This document shows, piece after piece, positions 1-31,297 of a stretch of DNA of 48,277 nt. Numbering within the stretch: the first letter of the stretch is position 1; each line of letters opens with the position of its first letter. The stretch lies in assembly GCA_964645795.1 (NCBI GenBank), contig CAZYCL010000005.1, forward strand, positions 124,771 through 173,047, read 5' to 3'. A program made the position numbers and the translations under genes. Below the pieces are notes generated by a model. That model did no database searches and had not been told where the DNA came from. It saw only the letters and a list, made by a program, of their open reading frames with translations. Source of the stretch: an uncultured Planctomycetales bacterium (GTDB lineage: Bacteria; Omnitrophota; Gorgyraeia; Gygaellales; Profunditerraquicolaceae).

Positions 1-22
1 CGGGAGAACCGGCCGAGTTTAA

Positions 23-97
23 TGTCCCCAACCGGATTTGAACCGGTGTCGAGAGCTTGAAAAGCTCTTGTCCTAGACCAGGCTAGACGATGGGGAC
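23..97 (-). tRNA. tRNA-Glu (anticodon TTC), CCA not encoded
   Basis: Reverse complement GTCCCCATCGTCTAGCCTGGTCTAGGACAAGAGCTTTTCAAGCTCTCGACACCGGTTCAAATCCGGTTGGGGACA folds as a cloverleaf: acceptor GTCCCCA/TGGGGAC, anticodon stem AGAGC/GCTCT with loop TTTTCAA, T-loop TTCAAAT. Confidence 0.95.
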
Positions 98-336
98 TGT
101 CTTTCAATCAAACCTATCAAATAACCCTTGTCTTTACGACGCTTAATTTCGTTTTCTCGTTTGCGCTCTTCGGTTCGGGTTTTAAACTCTTCTTTGTAAA
201 TAACCTTGAGCGGTCCTTTATGCTTTGTGGATCTAACGCTATTCTGATTGTGCCTTTTTAGTCTTGCCTCTAAATCTTCGCAGCTGCCCGTATAATGCCA
301 GCCGTCTTGATTTGCCAAAACATATACGTAATACAT
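73..336 (-). CDS. Small GIY-YIG nuclease family protein (UPF0213-like), 87 aa; last 8 codons overlap the tRNA-Glu 5' end
   Basis: YYVYVL...WHYTGSCEDLEARLKRHN...RSTK...EEF...KRENEIK matches the GIY-YIG pattern (two Tyr-containing strands, conserved Arg, His-Asn and Glu). Confidence 0.85.
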   Translation of the reverse strand: MYYVYVLANQDGWHYTGSCEDLEARLKRHNQNSVRSTKHKGPLKVIYKEEFKTRTEERKRENEIKRRKDKGYLIGLIERQSPSSSLV

Positions 337-352
337 TTATGTCGAGAGCTTG

Positions 353-421
353 TCCCGGCACCCTAGTTTTTTTATTCTAGGGCCGGGATCCCGCCGCCTG
401 AACCGATCTGGGGCTGCGGGA
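353..421. repeat. Tandem pair of TCCCG...CGGGA mini inverted-repeat elements (36 and 33 bp)
   Basis: 353-388 tcccggcaccctag-T-rich-ctagggccggga and 389-421 tcccgccgcc...ggggctgcggga, inserted in the anticodon loop of the tRNA copy. Confidence 0.9.
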
Positions 422-446
422 AAAAGCTCTTGTCCTAGACCAGGCT

Positions 447-506
447 TCCCGCCAGGCCATCATATAGAGGGCGGGATCCCGCTCGCTATCCAATAGCCTA
501 GCGGGA
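447..506. repeat. Tandem pair of TCCCG...CGGGA mini inverted-repeat elements (30 and 30 bp)
   Basis: 447-476 tcccgcc...ggcggga and 477-506 tcccgct...agcggga, inserted between tRNA nt 13 and 14. Confidence 0.9.
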
Positions 507-526
507 AGACGATGGGGACTATATAT

Positions 527-2961: not shown

Positions 2962-3039
2962 AATGAGGCCGCAACGCTTTGCTAAACCCAGCAAGGCGTT
3001 GTATGGCCTAATTAATCCCGCCGAGGCTACGAGGCGGGA
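2962..3039. repeat. Composite palindromic element: 52-bp AATGAGGCC...GGCCNAATT hairpin plus a 24-bp TCCCG...CGGGA hairpin
   Basis: Ungapped 37/52 match to 15229-15280 with compensatory stem changes; both copies are followed 2 nt later by TCCCG...CGGGA (here 3016-3039). Confidence 0.8.
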
Positions 3040-3046
3040 TGTGCCC

Positions 3047-5786
<2,740 letters not shown>

Positions 5787-14609: not shown

Positions 14610-15152
14610 GTGACGAGGGAGAAGAATGTTGTTTTGGGGGTCACGGCGAGCATAGCCATTTACAAGGCCTGTGAGATTGTGCGCCGGTTAAGAGAAAATG
14701 GGTTCTGCGTCAGGGTGGTCATGACCGAAGAAGCCTGCCAGCTTATCCGCCCGGTGGTCTTCCAAAGCCTTTCCGCAAACAAAGTTTACTGCGGGATGTT
14801 CGAGGAGCCGGGAAGCTGGGAGGTAGAACATATATCTTTGGCTGATAAGGCCGAGCTTGTTTTGATCGCGCCGGCAACCGCAAATATCATCGGGAAGCTT
14901 GCGGGCGGCATCTGCGATGACCTTTTGACTTGCGCTGTATGTGCGACCAGGGCCCAGGTGCTTATCTGTCCGGCGATGAACGAGAACATGTATAAGAATG
15001 ATATCGTCCAGGAGAACATCGCAAGGCTAAAGAAGCACGGTTACAGGTTTGTCGAGCCGAAGGTAGGAAATCTTGCATGCGGCAGGCGCGGGCCAGGGTG
15101 CCTGGCGGAAGTAGATACCATAGTAAAAGAAGCGCTAAGGCTCTTGAAATAA
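14610..15152 (+). CDS. coaC: Phosphopantothenoylcysteine decarboxylase (CoaC flavoprotein domain only)
   Basis: VLGVTASIAIYKA, HISLAD, APATANIIGK, DDLLTC, PAMNENM, LACGRRGPG; GTG start with GGGAGG RBS; no CoaB domain. Confidence 0.9.
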   Translation: MTREKNVVLGVTASIAIYKACEIVRRLRENGFCVRVVMTEEACQLIRPVVFQSLSANKVYCGMFEEPGSWEVEHISLADKAELVLIAPATANIIGKLAGGICDDLLTCAVCATRAQVLICPAMNENMYKNDIVQENIARLKKHGYRFVEPKVGNLACGRRGPGCLAEVDTIVKEALRLLK

Positions 15153-15154
15153 TT

Positions 15155-15226
15155 GGCGACGTAGCCAAGTGGTAAGGCAGCTCTCTGCAAAAGAGCTATT
15201 CAGCGGTTCAAGTCCGCTCGTCGCCT
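15155..15226 (+). tRNA. tRNA-Cys (GCA), CCA not encoded
   Basis: GGCGACG/CGTCGCC acceptor, anticodon stem GCTCT/AGAGC with loop CTGCAAA, T-loop TTCAAGT. Confidence 0.95.
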
Positions 15227-15228
15227 TA

Positions 15229-15334
15229 AATGAGGCCATAATACTTTGCCGGGCCCGGCAAAGTATTGTTGGGCCGAATTTCTCCCGAGCTTGCACTGAA
15301 CCGCCAACAGCGGTCAATGCGTATAAGCTCGGGA
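15229..15334. repeat. Second copy of the composite palindromic element (52-bp hairpin plus 52-bp TCCCG...CGGGA hairpin)
   Basis: Contains the perfect palindrome AATACTTTGCCGGGCCCGGCAAAGTATT; TCCCGAGCTT...AAGCTCGGGA at 15283-15334; homologous to 2962-3039. Confidence 0.8.
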
Positions 15335-15351
15335 CTCAATACTTAAATTCC

Positions 15352-15587
15352 GGGCGGTTAGTTCAATTTAAATTTTCCGACAAGGAAAATTTAAATTGAT
15401 CCTTTTCGAACGTCGTTTTGCGACAAGCAAAACAGTGAGAAAAGGATCTAATTGTTGGATAGCACAGAGGATTTCGGGCGGTTAGTTCAGCCCCTGCAGA
15501 AAGCGCAGGGGCTCCCGCGGATGCAAAAAGCGCATCCTTGGTCGTTGGTAAAAGGTGTTCACTACCCGCCAGCGACTAAAAGATTTC
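15352..15587 (+). pseudogene. Two aborted 5' copies of tRNA-Val, each followed by paired hairpins
   Basis: GGGCGGTTAGTTCA at 15352-15365 and GATTTCGGGCGGTTAGTTCAG at 15470-15490, the latter identical to 15582-15602 (leader plus nt 1-15 of tRNA-Val). Confidence 0.8.
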
Positions 15588-15664
15588 GGGCGGTTAGTTC
15601 AGTTGGTTAGAACGCCACATTGACATTGTGGAGGTCACAGGTTCGAGTCCTGTATCGCCCACCA
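15588..15664 (+). tRNA. tRNA-Val (GAC), CCA encoded
   Basis: Cloverleaf with anticodon stem CCACA/TGTGG, loop TTGACAT, T-loop TTCGAGT, 3' ACCA. Confidence 0.96.
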
Positions 15665-15688
15665 TAACAGCTCGTAAAGCGTTAGTCG

Positions 15689-15743
15689 GTTGCGTAGCGC
15701 GAAACGTAAGGCGTCTTGCGCTAAACGTTACGCGCTACGCAAC
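15689..15743. repeat. Long inverted repeat between tRNA-Val and tRNA-Leu
   Basis: 13-bp perfect arms GTTGCGTAGCGCG/CGCGCTACGCAAC, extended by AACGT/ACGTT after one mismatch. Confidence 0.75.
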
Positions 15744-15766
15744 GGATAAACGTAGCACGATAATCA

Positions 15767-15849
15767 GGGCAAGTGGTGGAATGGCATACACGACAGACTT
15801 AAAATCTGTTGATCGCAAGGTCTTGAGGGTTCGACTCCCTCCTTGCCCA
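15767..15849 (+). tRNA. tRNA-Leu (TAA), CCA not encoded
   Basis: GGGCAAG/CTTGCCC acceptor, anticodon stem ACAGA/TCTGT with loop CTTAAAA, long variable arm, T-loop TTCGACT. Confidence 0.95.
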
Positions 15850-15863
15850 ATGCTCTAAAAATT

Positions 15864-16613
15864 ATGATAAAAATATTTATATTAATGGTTTCTACCATTG
15901 TTTTATATACGTGCGTCTCTTTTGCCGAGACGGTTTATTTAAAAAACGGTAAGGCCATAAACGGCAGAATTCTCGAAACAACCGATAAATACGTCCGGAT
16001 CGAATTCGAGGGCGTGCCGCTCACTTATTATTTCAACGAGATCGAAAAGATAGAAGGCCTGAATGCCGCTTTGGTCCCGATGGCGCCGAGTGCCTCCGGA
16101 AAGCTTTATCGGGACAAGGAATACGGGTTTGAGCTCCGGGCGCCAAGAGGGTGGCATATTAGCAAGATTGCCCCCGGCACAGAAGGGACAAAGTTGGGAG
16201 GGGTCAAATTCACGAAAAACCCGGCAGACGAAGCGAACCCTTTTCCGATAATAGGGATAACCGTGGACGCCGTCGGGACCTCACCATACAATACCGGAAT
16301 CAACAGCGCCCTCGATTTTGCGAGGAAGATTTTTGAAGGCCAAAGAAGAATGGCCGCCAGCAAGGGCGGAAAATTTCAGGCGATAGAGGAGCCTCGCGAG
16401 ATAGAGATAGGCGGACAAAGGGCCGCGAGGTTCATCACTAAACTGATCTCCTCCAGCGGCAAAGCTATGTGCGTGGCAGCGTACAAGTTTAAACAGGCCG
16501 ATATAATAATCTCGGTTGCCGGGGTAGATGTGCCAGATACCTTTCAAGGCAGCCTAAGGGATTTTGAAGAGACGGCCAACAGTTTCAAGTTTACCGGGCC
16601 GGCAGGCAACTAG
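15864..16613 (+). CDS. Hypothetical exported protein (signal peptide, small beta-rich N-domain, possible PsbP-like C-domain)
   Basis: Hydrophobic N-terminus ending SFA-ETVYLKNG; YRDKEYGFELRAPRGW...FEETANSFKF pattern; the ORF-track start at 15843 overlaps tRNA-Leu. Confidence 0.7.
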   Translation: MIKIFILMVSTIVLYTCVSFAETVYLKNGKAINGRILETTDKYVRIEFEGVPLTYYFNEIEKIEGLNAALVPMAPSASGKLYRDKEYGFELRAPRGWHISKIAPGTEGTKLGGVKFTKNPADEANPFPIIGITVDAVGTSPYNTGINSALDFARKIFEGQRRMAASKGGKFQAIEEPREIEIGGQRAARFITKLISSSGKAMCVAAYKFKQADIIISVAGVDVPDTFQGSLRDFEETANSFKFTGPAGN

Positions 16614-26216: not shown

Positions 26217-26271
26217 ATCCGTCCCGCCGCTCTGGCCGGTGCAAAAACCGGATCCGGAATGCGGGACGGAT
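26217..26271. repeat. TCCCG...CGGGA-type hairpin downstream of 6S RNA (may double as terminator)
   Basis: 11-bp perfect arms ATCCGTCCCGC/GCGGGACGGAT with inner CCGGT/ACCGG hairpin; followed by a T-rich tract. Confidence 0.7.
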
Positions 26272-27683: not shown

Positions 27684-28145
27684 ATGAAAAAGCCGATATC
27701 GTTGACGGCAGTCATTGTGATGATCGTTTTGTCTGCGGGCTGCCAGAATACCCAAAACCGCACGGGGGAAGGCGCGGTTATTGGCGGCCTGCTGGGTGCG
27801 GCAGCAGGAGGCATAATCGGACACCAGGATGGCCACGGAGGCGAAGGGGCGGCGATAGGCGCAGCAGCCGGGGCCCTGACCGGAGCGCTGGTAGGCAGTC
27901 AGGTAAAAAAACAGCCGCAGCCTTCATCCAGACAGCCAGCCCAGTCCGTTCAGGCGGCAAACCCTAATCAGATGCCCCTGCAGCAGATAGTCAGCTTAAC
28001 TAAGCAAGGCGTGAACGAGGACGTTATCATAGACAAGGTACGCCTTACCAGCTCAAGGTACAGCCTTAGCCAGGCCGATATAGATTACCTTAAAAACGAA
28101 GGCGTTTCGCAAAAGGTGATAAGCGCCATGCAGGCCCAGCAATGA
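27684..28145 (+). CDS. Glycine-zipper lipoprotein
   Basis: Lipobox [22 protein letters not shown]...[13 protein letters not shown] glycine zipper, short helical C-domain ([14 protein letters not shown]). Confidence 0.8.
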
Positions 28146-31100
28146 CCCCGTTCAGCCTTATAATTGTAATTTTAGGCGCAGCGCTGCTTTTTTACGGTCT
28201 AATCGGGCTGCTCTTGCCGGTTTCCGGAGCGGATAAAGAGAAAAAGAAGCCGCCGGTTCCGCCATTTCCCGCCAGGCCCGGCGAGCCTTTAAGGTCGGAC
28301 AAAAACCAGAAACAACAGCAGTTTGTGCTCATCCAGGAAGAGCTGGAGAGGTTAAAAAACGAACGGGCCGAGATTGAATCCAAGCTCAAGGCGGCCCTCG
28401 ATAGCCAGACGCAGCTTAAGGCCGAGCTTGAACGCCGCAACGACTGGGTAGGGAAATCCGAGGCCGCATTAAACAAGGTCAAGGAAGAGAACAACGACCT
28501 TAAAAAAAGTTTTCTGGCCAAGGAAACGGAATCTCAGGATCTGTTTACCAAGAACGTAAACCTCACTAAGGAGATCAAAGAGCAGGTTGAGAAGTTCGCC
28601 GGGCTTGAGAAGGACATCAGGGATAAGTCAGAGCAGATCGAGATTCAAAAACACCAGATCGAAAAGCTCAATAACGACATCAAAGGGTTTAAAGAGAAGG
28701 TCTCGGAGTATCAGAAAAGAGAGTCAAACAGCGAATGGGTCCCCAAGCAGGAGTTTGGCAAGCTCAACGAAGAGTTTACGCAGCTTGAAAAAGAGCTGGA
28801 AGAAAAAGATGAGAAGCTCAGGATCGCCTGCGAAGAGATAGTGCAGTTAAAGGCCCAGCTGAACTCAAGGGCGGATTTTGAGGTAACGCCGGCTGAACCG
28901 ACCGAACCCCCCACAACTAAAGCCCCGGAAGCCGTTGTGCCTCAAGAATCGGCCGCCGACAAAGAGGCCGTTGCCGAAGAAAAGATCGAAGGCCAGACCG
29001 TAGATCAGCCTGCAGCCGCCCCTCCCGTCGAGGAACCCCCTCCTCCAGAGGCAGCAGCACCAGACCAAACCCCTTCTCCTGAACCAGAAGCCCCTCCTGT
29101 AGAGGCGCAGGCCGCACAAGAAAGCACCAAGGCTTTGCCGGAAGAAAAAGCCGAAGAAGAAAAATCCGAAGCTCCGGCAGAAAAGGCCGCGCGCACGGTA
29201 GAGGCAGACCTTAGCAAGGTCAGGAACATCGGGATAATGGCGCATATTGATGCCGGCAAAACCACGCTTTCCGAAAGAATACTTTATTACACCGGCAAGT
29301 CACACAAGATCGGGGAAGTGCACGACGGACATGCCACCATGGACTGGATGAAACAGGAGCAGGAGAGAGGGATTACCATAACGGCGGCCGCTACGACTTG
29401 TTTCTGGAAGGACCATCGGATCAATTTAATCGATACGCCAGGCCACGTGGATTTTACCGTTGAGGTAGAACGCAGCTTGCGCGTTCTTGACGGCGCAGTG
29501 GCGGTATTCTGTGCGGTAGGAGGGGTGGAGCCGCAGTCTGAGACGGTCTGGCATCAGTCCGACAAGTATAACGTCCCGAAACTTGCCTTTGTCAATAAAA
29601 TGGACCGCGTAGGAGCAAACTTCTTTGCCGTTGTAAAAGGCATCGAGCAGGAGCTTGGGGCCAATCCCGTCTGCGTCAATATACCGTTAGGAGCGGAAGC
29701 CGATTTTAAGGGGATCATCGATCTTATCGAGATGAAGGCCCATTTTTTTGATGAAACTTCGCAGGGCAAAGAGTATAAGAAGGAAGACATCCCCCAGGAT
29801 TATGCCGAGCAGGCCGGTGAATACCGCCATATTCTCGTAGAGAAGGTCGCTACCTTCGATGAGGCGCTTACTAAAAAGTATCTTGAGTCCGAGGCTTCGA
29901 TCACCAATGATGAGCTTATAAAGGTTATCCGCCAGGCTACCATCGCCAACAAGATGGTCCCGGTATTCTGCGGCTCGGCATTTAAGAATAAAGGCGTGCA
30001 GCAACTCCTGGACGGAGTTAGCGCGTTCCTGCCGTCCCCTGTTGACCTGCCCCCGGTAAAAGGCCACGATATCGACGACGAAAACAGGCCCATCGAAAGA
30101 AAGCCGGATACCAAAGAGCCGTTTTCAGGGCTGGCATTTAAGGTTCAGACAGATCCCCATATGGGCAAGCTCGTATATGTGCGCGTCTACTCAGGGGTGC
30201 TTGAGACCGGCACATACGTGCTTAACTCCACCAAGAACAAGAAGGAGCGCGTGGGCCGCATCGTCCAGATGCACGCCAACCAAAGGCACAACGTTGAGTA
30301 CGCCGCTGCCGGAGATATCGTAGCCGTGGTGGGCCTTTCCAACACCATAACCGGGGATACGCTTTGTTATCCCGAGAATAAGCTGATCTTTGAAGCGATC
30401 AAATTCCCCGCCCCGGTAGTCTCGATGAGCATCACCCCCAAGAGCCGCTCGGATCAGGACAAGCTCGGTAAGGGGCTGGCAAAGCTTACCGAGGAAGACC
30501 CGACATTCGTCGTCCAGACCGACGAGGAGACAAAAGAGACGCTGCTTACCGGGATGGGCGAGCTGCACCTGGAGATCATCGTCGACAGATTAAAAGAGGA
30601 GTTTGGGGTCGAGACCATCGTCGGCCAGCCGCGCGTAGCCTACCGGGAGACGATTACCAAATCCGGCGGCGCGGAAGGAAAGTATATCAGGCAGACCGGC
30701 GGGAGAGGCCAGTACGGCCACGTTGTCCTTGAGATAGCCCCCCAGGAGTCGGGAAAGGGTTTTGAGTTCGTTGATGCGATAAAGGGAGGCGCCATCCCGC
30801 GCTCGTTCATCCCTTCCGTTGAAAAGGGGGTTATCGAGGCGATGGGCAAGGGCGTATATGCCGGCTATCCGGTAGTCGACGTCAAAGTAACCCTTGTGGA
30901 CGGCTCGTTCCACGAAGTGGACTCTTCGGAGTTGGCCTTTAAGATGGCGTCCAGCATCGGATTTAAAGAGGCGTTTATGAAGTCAGAGCCTGTTTTACTG
31001 GAGCCCTGCATGTCGCTGGAAGTCACTACCCCCGAAGAGTACTTGAACAGCCTTATCGGATATATCTGTTCGCGCCGGGGCAAGATCCTTAATACCGACG

Positions 31101-31297
31101 CCAAGGGAAAACAGAAGATTATATCGGCGCAGGTGCCGCTGGGAGAGATGTTCGGATATGCCACCAACATCAGGTCTTTAAGCAGCGGCCGGGCCTCTGC
31201 CTCCATGGAGTTCGACAAATATCTGCAGGCTCCCAACGAAATCGCCCAAAGGATAATCGCCGAGAAGAAAGAAAAGGAAGAGCAGCAAAGAAAGTGA
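28142..31297 (+). CDS. fusA: Elongation factor G paralog with N-terminal TM helix, coiled coil and Pro/Glu/Ala-rich linker (1051 aa)
   Basis: aa ~355-1051 carry [58 protein letters not shown] and MFGYAT; one continuous ORF from the ATGA overlap with the lipoprotein. Confidence 0.93.

Follow-up and report, generated by a model that had tools for sequence, protein, structure and literature searches.

Tandem tRNA-Val fragments with hairpin pairs in an Omnitrophota chromosome and their probable relation to mobile palindromic DNA at tRNA loop sites

Introduction

Small palindromic repeats and small nuclease genes beside conserved genes are known from several kinds of mobile DNA, among them the repetitive extragenic palindromic (REP) sequences with their BIME and REPIN arrangements and RAYT transposases (gamma-proteobacteria and others), the Rickettsia palindromic elements (RPE), the double-hairpin elements and endonuclease open reading frames (ORFs) of fungal mitochondria, and the free-standing GIY-YIG genes. 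Here we describe tRNA gene fragments that carry pairs of hairpins in a stretch of 48,277 nucleotides (nt) of an Omnitrophota chromosome (contig CAZYCL010000005.1, positions 124,771 to 173,047; this whole stretch is called the window), in particular two tandem repeats of the 5' end of tRNA-Val at 15352-15587. These repeats are probably the local case of a phenomenon that occurs across Candidatus Omnitrophota, in which mobile palindromic DNA strikes loop sites of tRNA genes and is kept where a partial duplication leaves the tRNA intact. The parts resemble the known kinds named above; what appears to be new is that tRNA loops are targeted, that a partial copy of the tRNA gene is always required and that the partner is a minimal GIY-YIG nuclease, all in combination. 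No description of tRNA-loop hairpin-pair elements was found in the literature searched, recent Omnitrophota papers included.

One of the hairpin-pair families, DH1, has a consensus of about 60 nt that is palindromic as a whole and consists of two inverted, imperfect hairpins of 30 nt (TCCCGCC..GGCGGGA). It shares with REP, BIME and REPIN sequences the inverted pairs of short imperfect palindromes, the multicopy occurrence, the conservation in the stem and not in the loop, and the presence of one small nuclease-type gene flanked by repeats. It differs in that no RAYT (Y1 HUH) was found among the window ORFs, the flanked gene encoding a GIY-YIG nuclease, and in that there is no GTAG-type 5' motif. 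Moreover, REPs are extragenic, whereas about 40-50% of the DH1 copies lie in tRNA gene fragments and some lie in frame in ORFs. RPEs are reportedly inserted in frame in protein-coding genes, and DH1 likewise includes palindromic repeats that are in frame and tolerated in protein genes; no mobilising enzyme has been assigned to either. RPEs belong to a different phylum and have a different sequence, DH1 being half their size, and to our knowledge tRNA-loop targeting with partial tRNA gene duplication is not a feature of RPEs.

Mobile two-hairpin modules are also said to occur in fungal mitochondria (double-hairpin elements, GC clusters). In the Allomyces atp6 insertion an endonuclease ORF reportedly arrived with a replacement for part of its target, and what it displaced remained behind, a hairpin element marking the junction; this is much like the layout described below. 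The fungal elements are organellar and have a protein gene as target, versus tRNA loops here, and the likeness is one of design. Free-standing GIY-YIG homing endonucleases (phage T4 seg, I-TevI family) are comparable in their catalytic domain, in their intergenic cassettes beside conserved genes, several tRNA genes among them, and in their flanking repeats; the protein found here has just 87 amino acids (aa) without a DNA-binding domain and is closest in sequence to the stand-alone UPF0213 / COG2827 proteins. The usual logic of homing self-immunity is inapplicable in our case because intact target sequence persists beside the GIY-YIG gene. Miniature inverted-repeat transposable elements (MITEs) of the cut-and-paste DDE type differ from DH1, which is palindromic but has no target-site duplication. 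The IS200/IS605-derived PATEs go with a TnpA transposase, for which the window ORFs were searched without a match, and with a fixed target of 4-5 nt immediately 5' of the left end; the DH1 flanks are loose TTN (147/244 sides, with a preference for TTN|NAA, the bar marking the insertion point).

Results and discussion

The tRNA-Val repeats

We compared the window with 205 related loci (L numbers) of Candidatus Omnitrophota, for which either the DH1 pattern or the thrS gene had served as the criterion of choice. The sequence GGGCGGTTAGTTCA (nt 1-14 of tRNA-Val(GAC)) was found exactly three times in the window (15352-15365, 15476-15489 and 15588-15601), where no occurrence is expected by chance. 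The first two occurrences open two tandem units that together make up 15352-15587, each consisting of the first 14-15 nt of tRNA-Val and a hairpin pair:

15352..15365, plus strand: 5' copy 1 of tRNA-Val, nt 1-14 (sequence match to the gene)
15364..15447, no strand: DH2 hairpin pair with GACAA loops (hairpin A 15364-15398, hairpin B 15399-15447; from the fold, with homologous modules in L141, L197 and L168)
15452..15475, plus strand: probable degenerate D-loop remainder TTGTTGGATAGCAC and spacer GATTTC (read from the sequence)
15476..15587, plus strand: complete Val unit, copy 2 (covariance model R1, 97.9 bits, E=2e-28)
15476-15490, 15489-15513 and 15513-15541: parts of the Val unit, namely tRNA-Val nt 1-15, hairpin 1 and hairpin 2
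15542-15560: conserved block TCGTTGGTAAAAGGTGTTC of the Val unit
15561-15570: strand ACTACCCGCC of the Val unit, complementary to tRNA nt 2-11, with an A-rich spacer behind it
15588..15664, plus strand: intact tRNA-Val(GAC) (tRNA call, Rfam)

The region 15352-15587 folds with an energy of -101 kcal/mol (z = -8.5), and the spacer GATTTC after copy 1 is shared with the spacer that precedes the intact tRNA-Val. The Val copies are mostly not simple insertions; behind the hairpins there is just a degenerate trace of D-loop sequence. Copy 1 was also considered as a Val unit and rejected, since the Val-unit covariance model fails to detect it and its hairpins are DH2.

A preliminary description of this DNA had placed a shared break between nt 13 and 14 in two different tRNA genes. 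This position is exact in tRNA-Glu (see below), but in tRNA-Val the homology to the gene stops at 14/15 in copy 1 and at 15/16 in copy 2. Strong hairpins do follow both Val copies, as had been described, but their start at nt 14 (extendable to nt 12-13 in copy 1) is only apparent: some tRNA bases take part in their stems, which makes them seem to begin at nt 12-14. The three events were rightly said to have different hairpins and represent three families (DH1, DH2 and the Val-unit hairpins), each present in multiple copies and in varied contexts in different genomes. The proposal that the insertion event itself produces the hairpins had to be given up, as these are members of pre-existing conserved repeat families that occur outside tRNA genes as well.

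The tRNA-Glu locus

The left end of the window holds an intact tRNA-Glu gene, a nuclease gene and a tRNA-Glu fragment with two inserts:

1..22, minus strand: start of a 3'-type tRNA-Glu fragment, with spacer, T-arm 5' strand GCCGGTTC (6-14) and the first 5 nt (TCCCG) of a T-loop DH1 pair; ends at the window edge
23..97, minus strand: intact tRNA-Glu(UUC) (ARAGORN; Rfam tRNA, 61.2 bits)
73..336, minus strand: GIY-YIG nuclease ORF of 87 aa, catalytic domain only (Pfam PF01541, E=8e-14)
340..352, minus strand: partial tRNA-Glu copy, nt 36-49 (100% match to the intact gene)
353..421, no strand: DH1 pair at 35/36, 69 nt (TCCCGG..CCGGGA and TCCCGC..GCGGGA)
422..446, minus strand: partial tRNA-Glu copy, nt 14-35 (match to the intact gene)
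447..506, no strand: DH1 pair exactly at 13/14, 60 nt
507..519, minus strand: partial tRNA-Glu copy, nt 1-13, directly after the gyrA stop

Each Glu insert consists of two hairpins of the form TCCCGC..GCGGGA. The DH1 pair at 13/14 is present in the window and in L048 and missing in L001, L002, L004 and L068, and the alignment of these orthologous loci showed identical flanks (CGTCT|AGCCTGG). The flanking sequence is unbroken in the empty sites, and the gain or loss of DH1 is therefore precise and without target duplication, so that the placement of the insert at 447-506 exactly between nt 13 and 14 in the preliminary description was confirmed. A DH1 pair at 35/36 of the tRNA-Glu fragment was also found in L001, L002, L004, L024, L068 and L116. 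Three homologues of the GIY-YIG gene could be traced to contigs, all of which have gyrB, gyrA, a 5' tRNA-Glu fragment with a TCCCGC-type hairpin pair at 35/36, the GIY-YIG gene and an intact tRNA-Glu, a synteny that is common to L001-L004. Across genomes the hairpins of the Glu locus have conserved stem ends, and their interiors differ yet remain paired. Downstream of tRNA-Glu, L002 carries a 3' fragment (nt 22-76) with a hairpin pair at 35/36, and L001 carries a fragment (nt 49-76) with a T-loop hairpin pair at 56/57; the layout of window positions 1..22 matches that of L001 at 3327-3436 (ACGGTTC|DH1|GAATCCGG).

Additions to the preliminary description are the second Glu insert at 35/36, the nuclease ORF that separates the Glu fragment from the intact tRNA-Glu, and the T-loop hairpin pair at the left edge of the window. 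The GyrA protein of the relative represented by L002 / L003 (1-2874) carries an intein with a LAGLIDADG domain (1270 aa, versus 815 aa for GyrA in the window).

The DH1 family

An exact-pattern scan (TCCCGC-N-GCGGGATCCCGC-N-GCGGGA) over 185,579 species genomes, one per bacterial or archaeal species, yielded at least 120 DH1 loci, nearly all of them in Omnitrophota (some labelled Planctomycetes or candidate phyla radiation), with up to 5 per metagenome-assembled genome. The matches listed include the complete genome of Ca. Velamenicoccus archaeovorus and a handful of GC-rich chance matches; about half of the DH1 copies among them lie outside tRNA genes. The pattern had 0 matches in viral contigs, and there is therefore no sign of a phage vector.

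DH1 also occurs inside protein genes. Of the copies found inside long ORFs, 15 out of 15 measure a multiple of 3 nt (48 of 107 among the other copies), and the ORFs read through them in one of two recurrent frames. The hairpin pairs are multicopy, precisely gained or lost, present in varied contexts and tolerated in frame, and we infer that they are mobile at the DNA level and non-autonomous, like MITEs, REPINs or RPEs. The peptides encoded by the copies in ORFs read SRQA..GGIPP..AGK or Y/FPA..RDPA..RD (L005, L015, L020/L072/L098/L101, L025, L028, L034, L038, L047, L074, L091, L093 and L121). Single TCCCGCC..GGCGGGA hairpins are present in the window at 3016-3039 (gyrB-gyrA spacer) and at 26222-26266 (right after the 6S RNA gene, followed by a T-run and terminator-like), and the DH1 stem motif is therefore also used singly.

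At T-loops (GTTC|RAAT) and at several anticodon loops the flanks agree with TTN|NAA. The preliminary description had proposed a structure-guided insertion, and the breaks do lie at tRNA loop positions; much of the site preference may nevertheless be plain sequence, though 13/14 misfits the motif. A closing stem was rejected as a general requirement, the flanks of DH1 copies outside tRNA genes being no more complementary than shuffled flank pairs (2.93 vs 2.91).

Precise insertion without target duplication, together with the REPIN/BIME-like design of two inverted imperfect hairpins, would also be expected if the hairpin pairs were mobilised by an unlinked HUH-type single-strand transposase (RAYT, IS200/IS605 TnpA or IS91-like), as are REPINs and PATEs, with the GIY-YIG gene as a passenger or as a separate homing element. 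GTTC and CTTG are the target tetranucleotides of IS91, and one of them stands on one side of 38 of the 122 DH1 copies, versus about 1 expected per tetranucleotide. This enrichment is real but almost confined to tRNA loops (32/38), where the motifs are intrinsic, the flanks elsewhere being loose TTN; the IS91-type target idea was therefore kept as a weak rival only. A conserved GTAG-like 5' motif is absent as well, and no HUH transposase was found among the window ORFs, to which the search was limited; we regard mobilisation by such an enzyme, possibly encoded elsewhere in the genome, as unlikely.

Break positions and layout in tRNA genes

Break points were counted for the DH1 copies among the matches listed and in a census of tRNA fragments that is independent of the DH1 pattern. 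Mapping of the flanks placed 49 of 136 DH1 copies in tRNA sequence, and inspection of the flanks added about 15. The junctions are 35/36 (14 copies), 56/57 (10), 13/14 (9), 55/56 (5), 54/55 (3), 12/13 (3), 14/15 (2) and three others with one copy each. The tRNA types struck number about 12 and give, together with the sites, at least 20 different pairings (Glu-UUC, Glu-CUC, Asp, Gln, Gly, Pro, Ser, Val, Met, Leu, Arg and Thr). The census comprised 90 fragments, 38 of which begin at nt 1; fragment ends cluster at 12-16 (29) and at 35 (10), and starts at 55-57 and 36. There are thus three hot spots, in the D-loop (12-16), the anticodon loop (35/36) and the T-loop (54-57). A histogram of insertion positions had been suggested as a check in the preliminary description; run on the 205 loci it is indeed far from uniform, with three peaks in place of the one at 13/14.

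The layout of the fragments is strict. The neighbouring intact tRNA always agrees with the fragment in type and orientation; fragments of the 5' type are upstream of it in 23 of 23 cases and those of the 3' type downstream in 21 of 21. On its outer side a fragment reaches the end of the tRNA, and on its inner side it runs 4-25 nt (median 8-10, about the rest of the arm) past the hairpin pair toward the intact gene. Long fragments have the hairpin pair in the arm nearest to the intact gene, their other loops being without a pair. Within tRNA genes the hairpin modules were found only in partial copies beside an intact copy.

These data leave hardly any room for the process favoured in the preliminary description, in which a guiding A14, or RNA and reverse transcription, creates paired hairpins de novo at 13/14. 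The 13/14 site is truly recurrent (in Glu-UUC, Glu-CUC, Asp and Gln fragments) and fragment ends coincide with tRNA loop positions, but two further hot spots are used equally, the T-loop and anticodon sites being at least as frequent, the Val breaks are at 14/15 and 15/16, and the hairpins belong to conserved families that are found elsewhere. The tRNA sequence resumes behind the hairpin pair, no reverse transcriptase is encoded in the window, and the associated protein is a GIY-YIG nuclease. The continuation of tRNA sequence past the hairpins also ruled out an origin from tRNA-derived RNA fragments. An interpretation as archaeal-type tRNA introns or split tRNA genes was rejected as well: in-silico removal of the hairpin pair restored a full tRNA in 0 of the 136 cases, and an intact tRNA is always adjacent.

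A more familiar source of partial tRNA repeats is the integration and excision of genomic islands by integrases, which leaves duplicated attachment (att) sites. Here too the partial repeats flank inserted DNA and the intact tRNA is preserved, and breaks occur in the anticodon loop and T-loop, which are reportedly among the classic crossover sublocations of integrases in tRNA genes. The inserts, however, measure just 60-300 nt, 5' fragments are as frequent as 3' fragments, the hairpin pair interrupts the repeat and does not sit between two repeats, and no integrase was found in the window. An origin as att remnants was already disfavoured on these grounds and seems very improbable to us.

The Val unit and DH2 in related genomes

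We compared 80 thrS loci, with 70-76% identity in threonyl-tRNA synthetase (ThrRS) and a conserved gene order Cys-Leu-Val-thrS. A Val unit of about 110 nt lies before tRNA-Val in 16 of about 70 thrS-linked loci and has the order tRNA-Val nt 1-15, hairpin 1, ACTCC, hairpin 2, TCGTTGGTAAAAGGTGTTC, GCTATGAGC (complementary to tRNA nt 3-11) and an A-rich spacer. Loci with the unit, in 1-2 tandem copies, are dispersed over the ThrRS clustering, and the Leu-Val spacers range from 3 to 1288 nt, many genomes having 3-12 nt. The tRNA fragment in the unit usually equals the resident tRNA (exceptions are L180, the distal unit of L200, and L137); L128 has mismatches in the stem. In L125, L159 and L200 two hairpins of the CCCCGAC/TCCCGAC type, close to DH1, are located exactly at 15/16. 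The DH2 module of window copy 1 was found right after tRNA-Leu in L141 and L197 and right after tRNA-Cys in L168; with its presence next to different tRNAs in different genomes, it is therefore one module in varied contexts.

The Val unit showed clear covariation: 91.9% of the cells are paired, versus 79% in shuffles, 17 pairs have double changes (8.2 in shuffles), and the covariation score was 0.369 (0.152 in shuffles), a value exceeded in 0 of 500 shuffles, with slid controls at 0.04-0.07. The window tRNA-Val has a different 5' sequence, and the complementary strand has three compensatory changes within the stem that it forms with tRNA nt 3-11. The strand complementary to the 5' end of the resident tRNA-Val tracks the sequence type of the tRNA (types II and III), as seen at 15561-15570 of the window and in the Leu-Val spacer of L149; in L149 it does so despite the absence of an upstream 5' fragment.

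These features could also point to a different function for the Val unit, and perhaps for other hairpin-bearing tRNA pieces, as a functional structured RNA in the tRNA precursor, possibly acquired secondarily. It could be a three-helix leader whose closing stem is formed by the copy of the tRNA 5' end and the complementary strand; the latter could also pair with the real tRNA 5' end and so act as a processing or folding switch or as a signal for RNase P or RNase III. The architecture and the block TCGTTGGTAAAAGGTGTTCGCTATGAGC kept in 16 loci, the strong covariation in all helices, the tracking of the tRNA 5' type in the window and L149, and the slight sense-strand folding bias of DH1 would all agree with such a role. 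On the other hand, the unit is patchy (about 24% of related loci, with many Leu-Val spacers of only 3-12 nt), its tandem copy number varies, fragment and resident tRNA disagree in the three loci named above and the stem is mismatched in a fourth, the Val units have no strand bias in folding energy, the related DH1 family lies in frame inside protein genes, and no Rfam family matches. In Rfam 15 at gathering threshold only tRNA and 6S RNA passed over the whole window, and at E<=10 nothing credible beyond tRNA was found across 15100-15900. We consider a structured RNA a possible but unlikely alternative to mobile palindromic DNA.

GIY-YIG and other nuclease genes

The homologues of the 87-aa GIY-YIG protein have 42-78% identity over the aligned part (63-69% for the top matches) and belong to Omnitrophota wherever named. 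The closest relatives in the PDB are the UPF0213 proteins 1zg2 and 1ywl (96-107 aa), and the match to TIGR01453 (group I intron endonuclease) was weak and below cut-off. The last 25 nt of the ORF overlap nt 1-25 of the intact tRNA-Glu, so that the stop codon lies inside the tRNA gene and RNase P processing of the tRNA would therefore remove the stop codon from the mRNA. Fourteen of the 19 GIY-YIG ORFs in the loci have DH1 immediately upstream, in the displaced 5' fragment, and overlap the intact tRNA (Glu-UUC, Glu-CUC or Asp).

Several sites carry a GIY-YIG ORF with repeats on its flanks: the upstream side of Glu-UUC, Glu-CUC or Asp, the downstream side of Val, and the Cys-Leu interval. The ORF after tRNA-Val in L152 is flanked by a direct repeat of about 105 nt (tRNA-Val nt 57-76 and two hairpins), and those in L160 and L030 lie between long inverted repeats. 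In L030 (7300-7440) two 5' stubs precede tRNA-Pro, one of which is the palindrome TGTAACGGGGCGTGCCCCGTTACA (tRNA 5' end and inverted copy), with a GIY-YIG ORF just upstream. Free-standing LAGLIDADG homing endonuclease ORFs of about 220 aa are present in the Cys-Leu spacer of seven loci (L133, L140, L173, L178, L180, L186 and L200) and truncated in L182; no tRNA duplication was visible in the ends of these spacers that were inspected. With both GIY-YIG and LAGLIDADG genes beside tRNAs, the tRNA flanks in Omnitrophota are therefore a general refuge for endonuclease genes.

Proposed mechanism and its weighing

In the mechanism that we propose for the mobile palindromic DNA, the element would favour loop-coding positions, drawn there by the TTN|NAA sequence, by the extrusion of the tRNA gene as a hairpin or cruciform, or by both. 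A strike in an essential single-copy tRNA gene would persist only if a tandem (partial) duplication, gene conversion or copied replacement keeps an intact tRNA. Since recombination in the part that adjoins the intact gene would bring back a dead tRNA, the disrupted copy would then lose this part, and long outer repeats would be lost by deletion. The stable end state would be short outer stubs (nt 1-13/15 upstream, 56-76 downstream), a residue that may account for the apparent common break point. The GIY-YIG nuclease may make the break or nick that drives insertion, duplication and homogenisation; its adjacency points, more weakly, to a role as driver like that of a free-standing homing endonuclease or of RAYT with REPs.

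Several points weigh against mobile palindromic DNA as the explanation or against parts of it. No transposition enzyme was identified, and we infer the whole mechanism. The GIY-YIG protein has no DNA-binding domain in its 87 aa, all of which are catalytic domain; many of the 14 cases with DH1 are orthologous (the gyrA-tRNA-Glu locus), and the closeness to DH1 could merely reflect that both lodge in tRNA flanks. The 13/14 site (TCT|AGC) is outside the TTN|NAA preference. The tRNA-linked DH1 copies fold slightly better on the tRNA-sense strand (32 vs 13, p=0.005, the cases not being independent). The Val unit is conserved far above neutral DNA at 71-76% ThrRS identity, and its conservation, covariation and compensatory changes fit a functional RNA or single-stranded DNA structure as well as a selfish element. 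Locus frequencies are biased because the loci were picked by the DH1 pattern or the thrS gene. Finally, a look-up of the exact ThrRS protein of the window gave no match, the closest relative found has 76% ThrRS identity to the window, and with none above this value the Val locus offers no comparison with a recent polymorphism or empty site.

A bolder form of the proposal, which we put forward only tentatively and hold to be possible but doubtful, is that of an undescribed class of selfish elements, in which a minimal GIY-YIG nuclease and hairpin pairs break tRNA genes at D, anticodon and T loop positions, probably as extruded hairpins or cruciforms, and copy themselves with a replacement part of the tRNA. 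Hairpin pairs alone would be non-autonomous derivatives that spread into intergenic regions and in frame into proteins, and the Val unit may be a co-opted leader that competes with the tRNA 5' end.

If true, targeting of tRNA loops would be a new target logic for bacterial mobile DNA, in which small palindromes home to the loops of essential single-copy tRNA genes and survive via partial duplication, in a phylum that is known almost only from metagenomes. It would give a testable role to the widespread, functionally obscure stand-alone GIY-YIG (UPF0213 / COG2827) proteins, and would account for the abundance of hairpins and tRNA fragments around the tRNA genes of these small genomes, features that can cause errors in the annotation of tRNAs and genes and breaks in assemblies. 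The in-frame DH1 copies are a second, independent example of RPE-like "protein-coding palindromes", and the Val unit would represent a novel kind of tRNA leader should it turn out to be an RNA switch.

Other features of the window

The window is a housekeeping segment of the chromosome around the replication origin (dnaA, dnaN, gyrB, gyrA, yidC, parAB, gmk, thrS, infC, pheST, 6S RNA) with 5 tRNA genes. Its proteins match those of metagenome-assembled genomes of Candidatus Omnitrophota, and a Pfam/domain search of the window ORFs detected no integrase, transposase or reverse transcriptase. Around the Val repeats we found:

15155..15226, plus strand: tRNA-Cys(GCA) (ARAGORN/tRNA call, Rfam)
15234..15337, no strand: two hairpins after tRNA-Cys (15234-15275 and 15281-15337), the second of the TCCCGAGCTT type that was also found after tRNA-Val in L152
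15767..15849, plus strand: tRNA-Leu(UAA) (tRNA call)

The tRNA order in the window is Cys-Val-Leu (15155-15849), with a 256-aa ORF without Pfam match preceding thrS; Cys-Leu-Val stands directly before thrS in all 70 relatives that have the region. The order in the window is a local rearrangement adjoining the repeat units. A nearly perfect hairpin with 28-nt arms, member of no hairpin-pair family, is located between tRNA-Val and tRNA-Leu (15680-15752). An EF-G-like ORF of 1051 aa (28142-31297, plus strand) has an N-terminal extension of about 350 aa without Pfam match.

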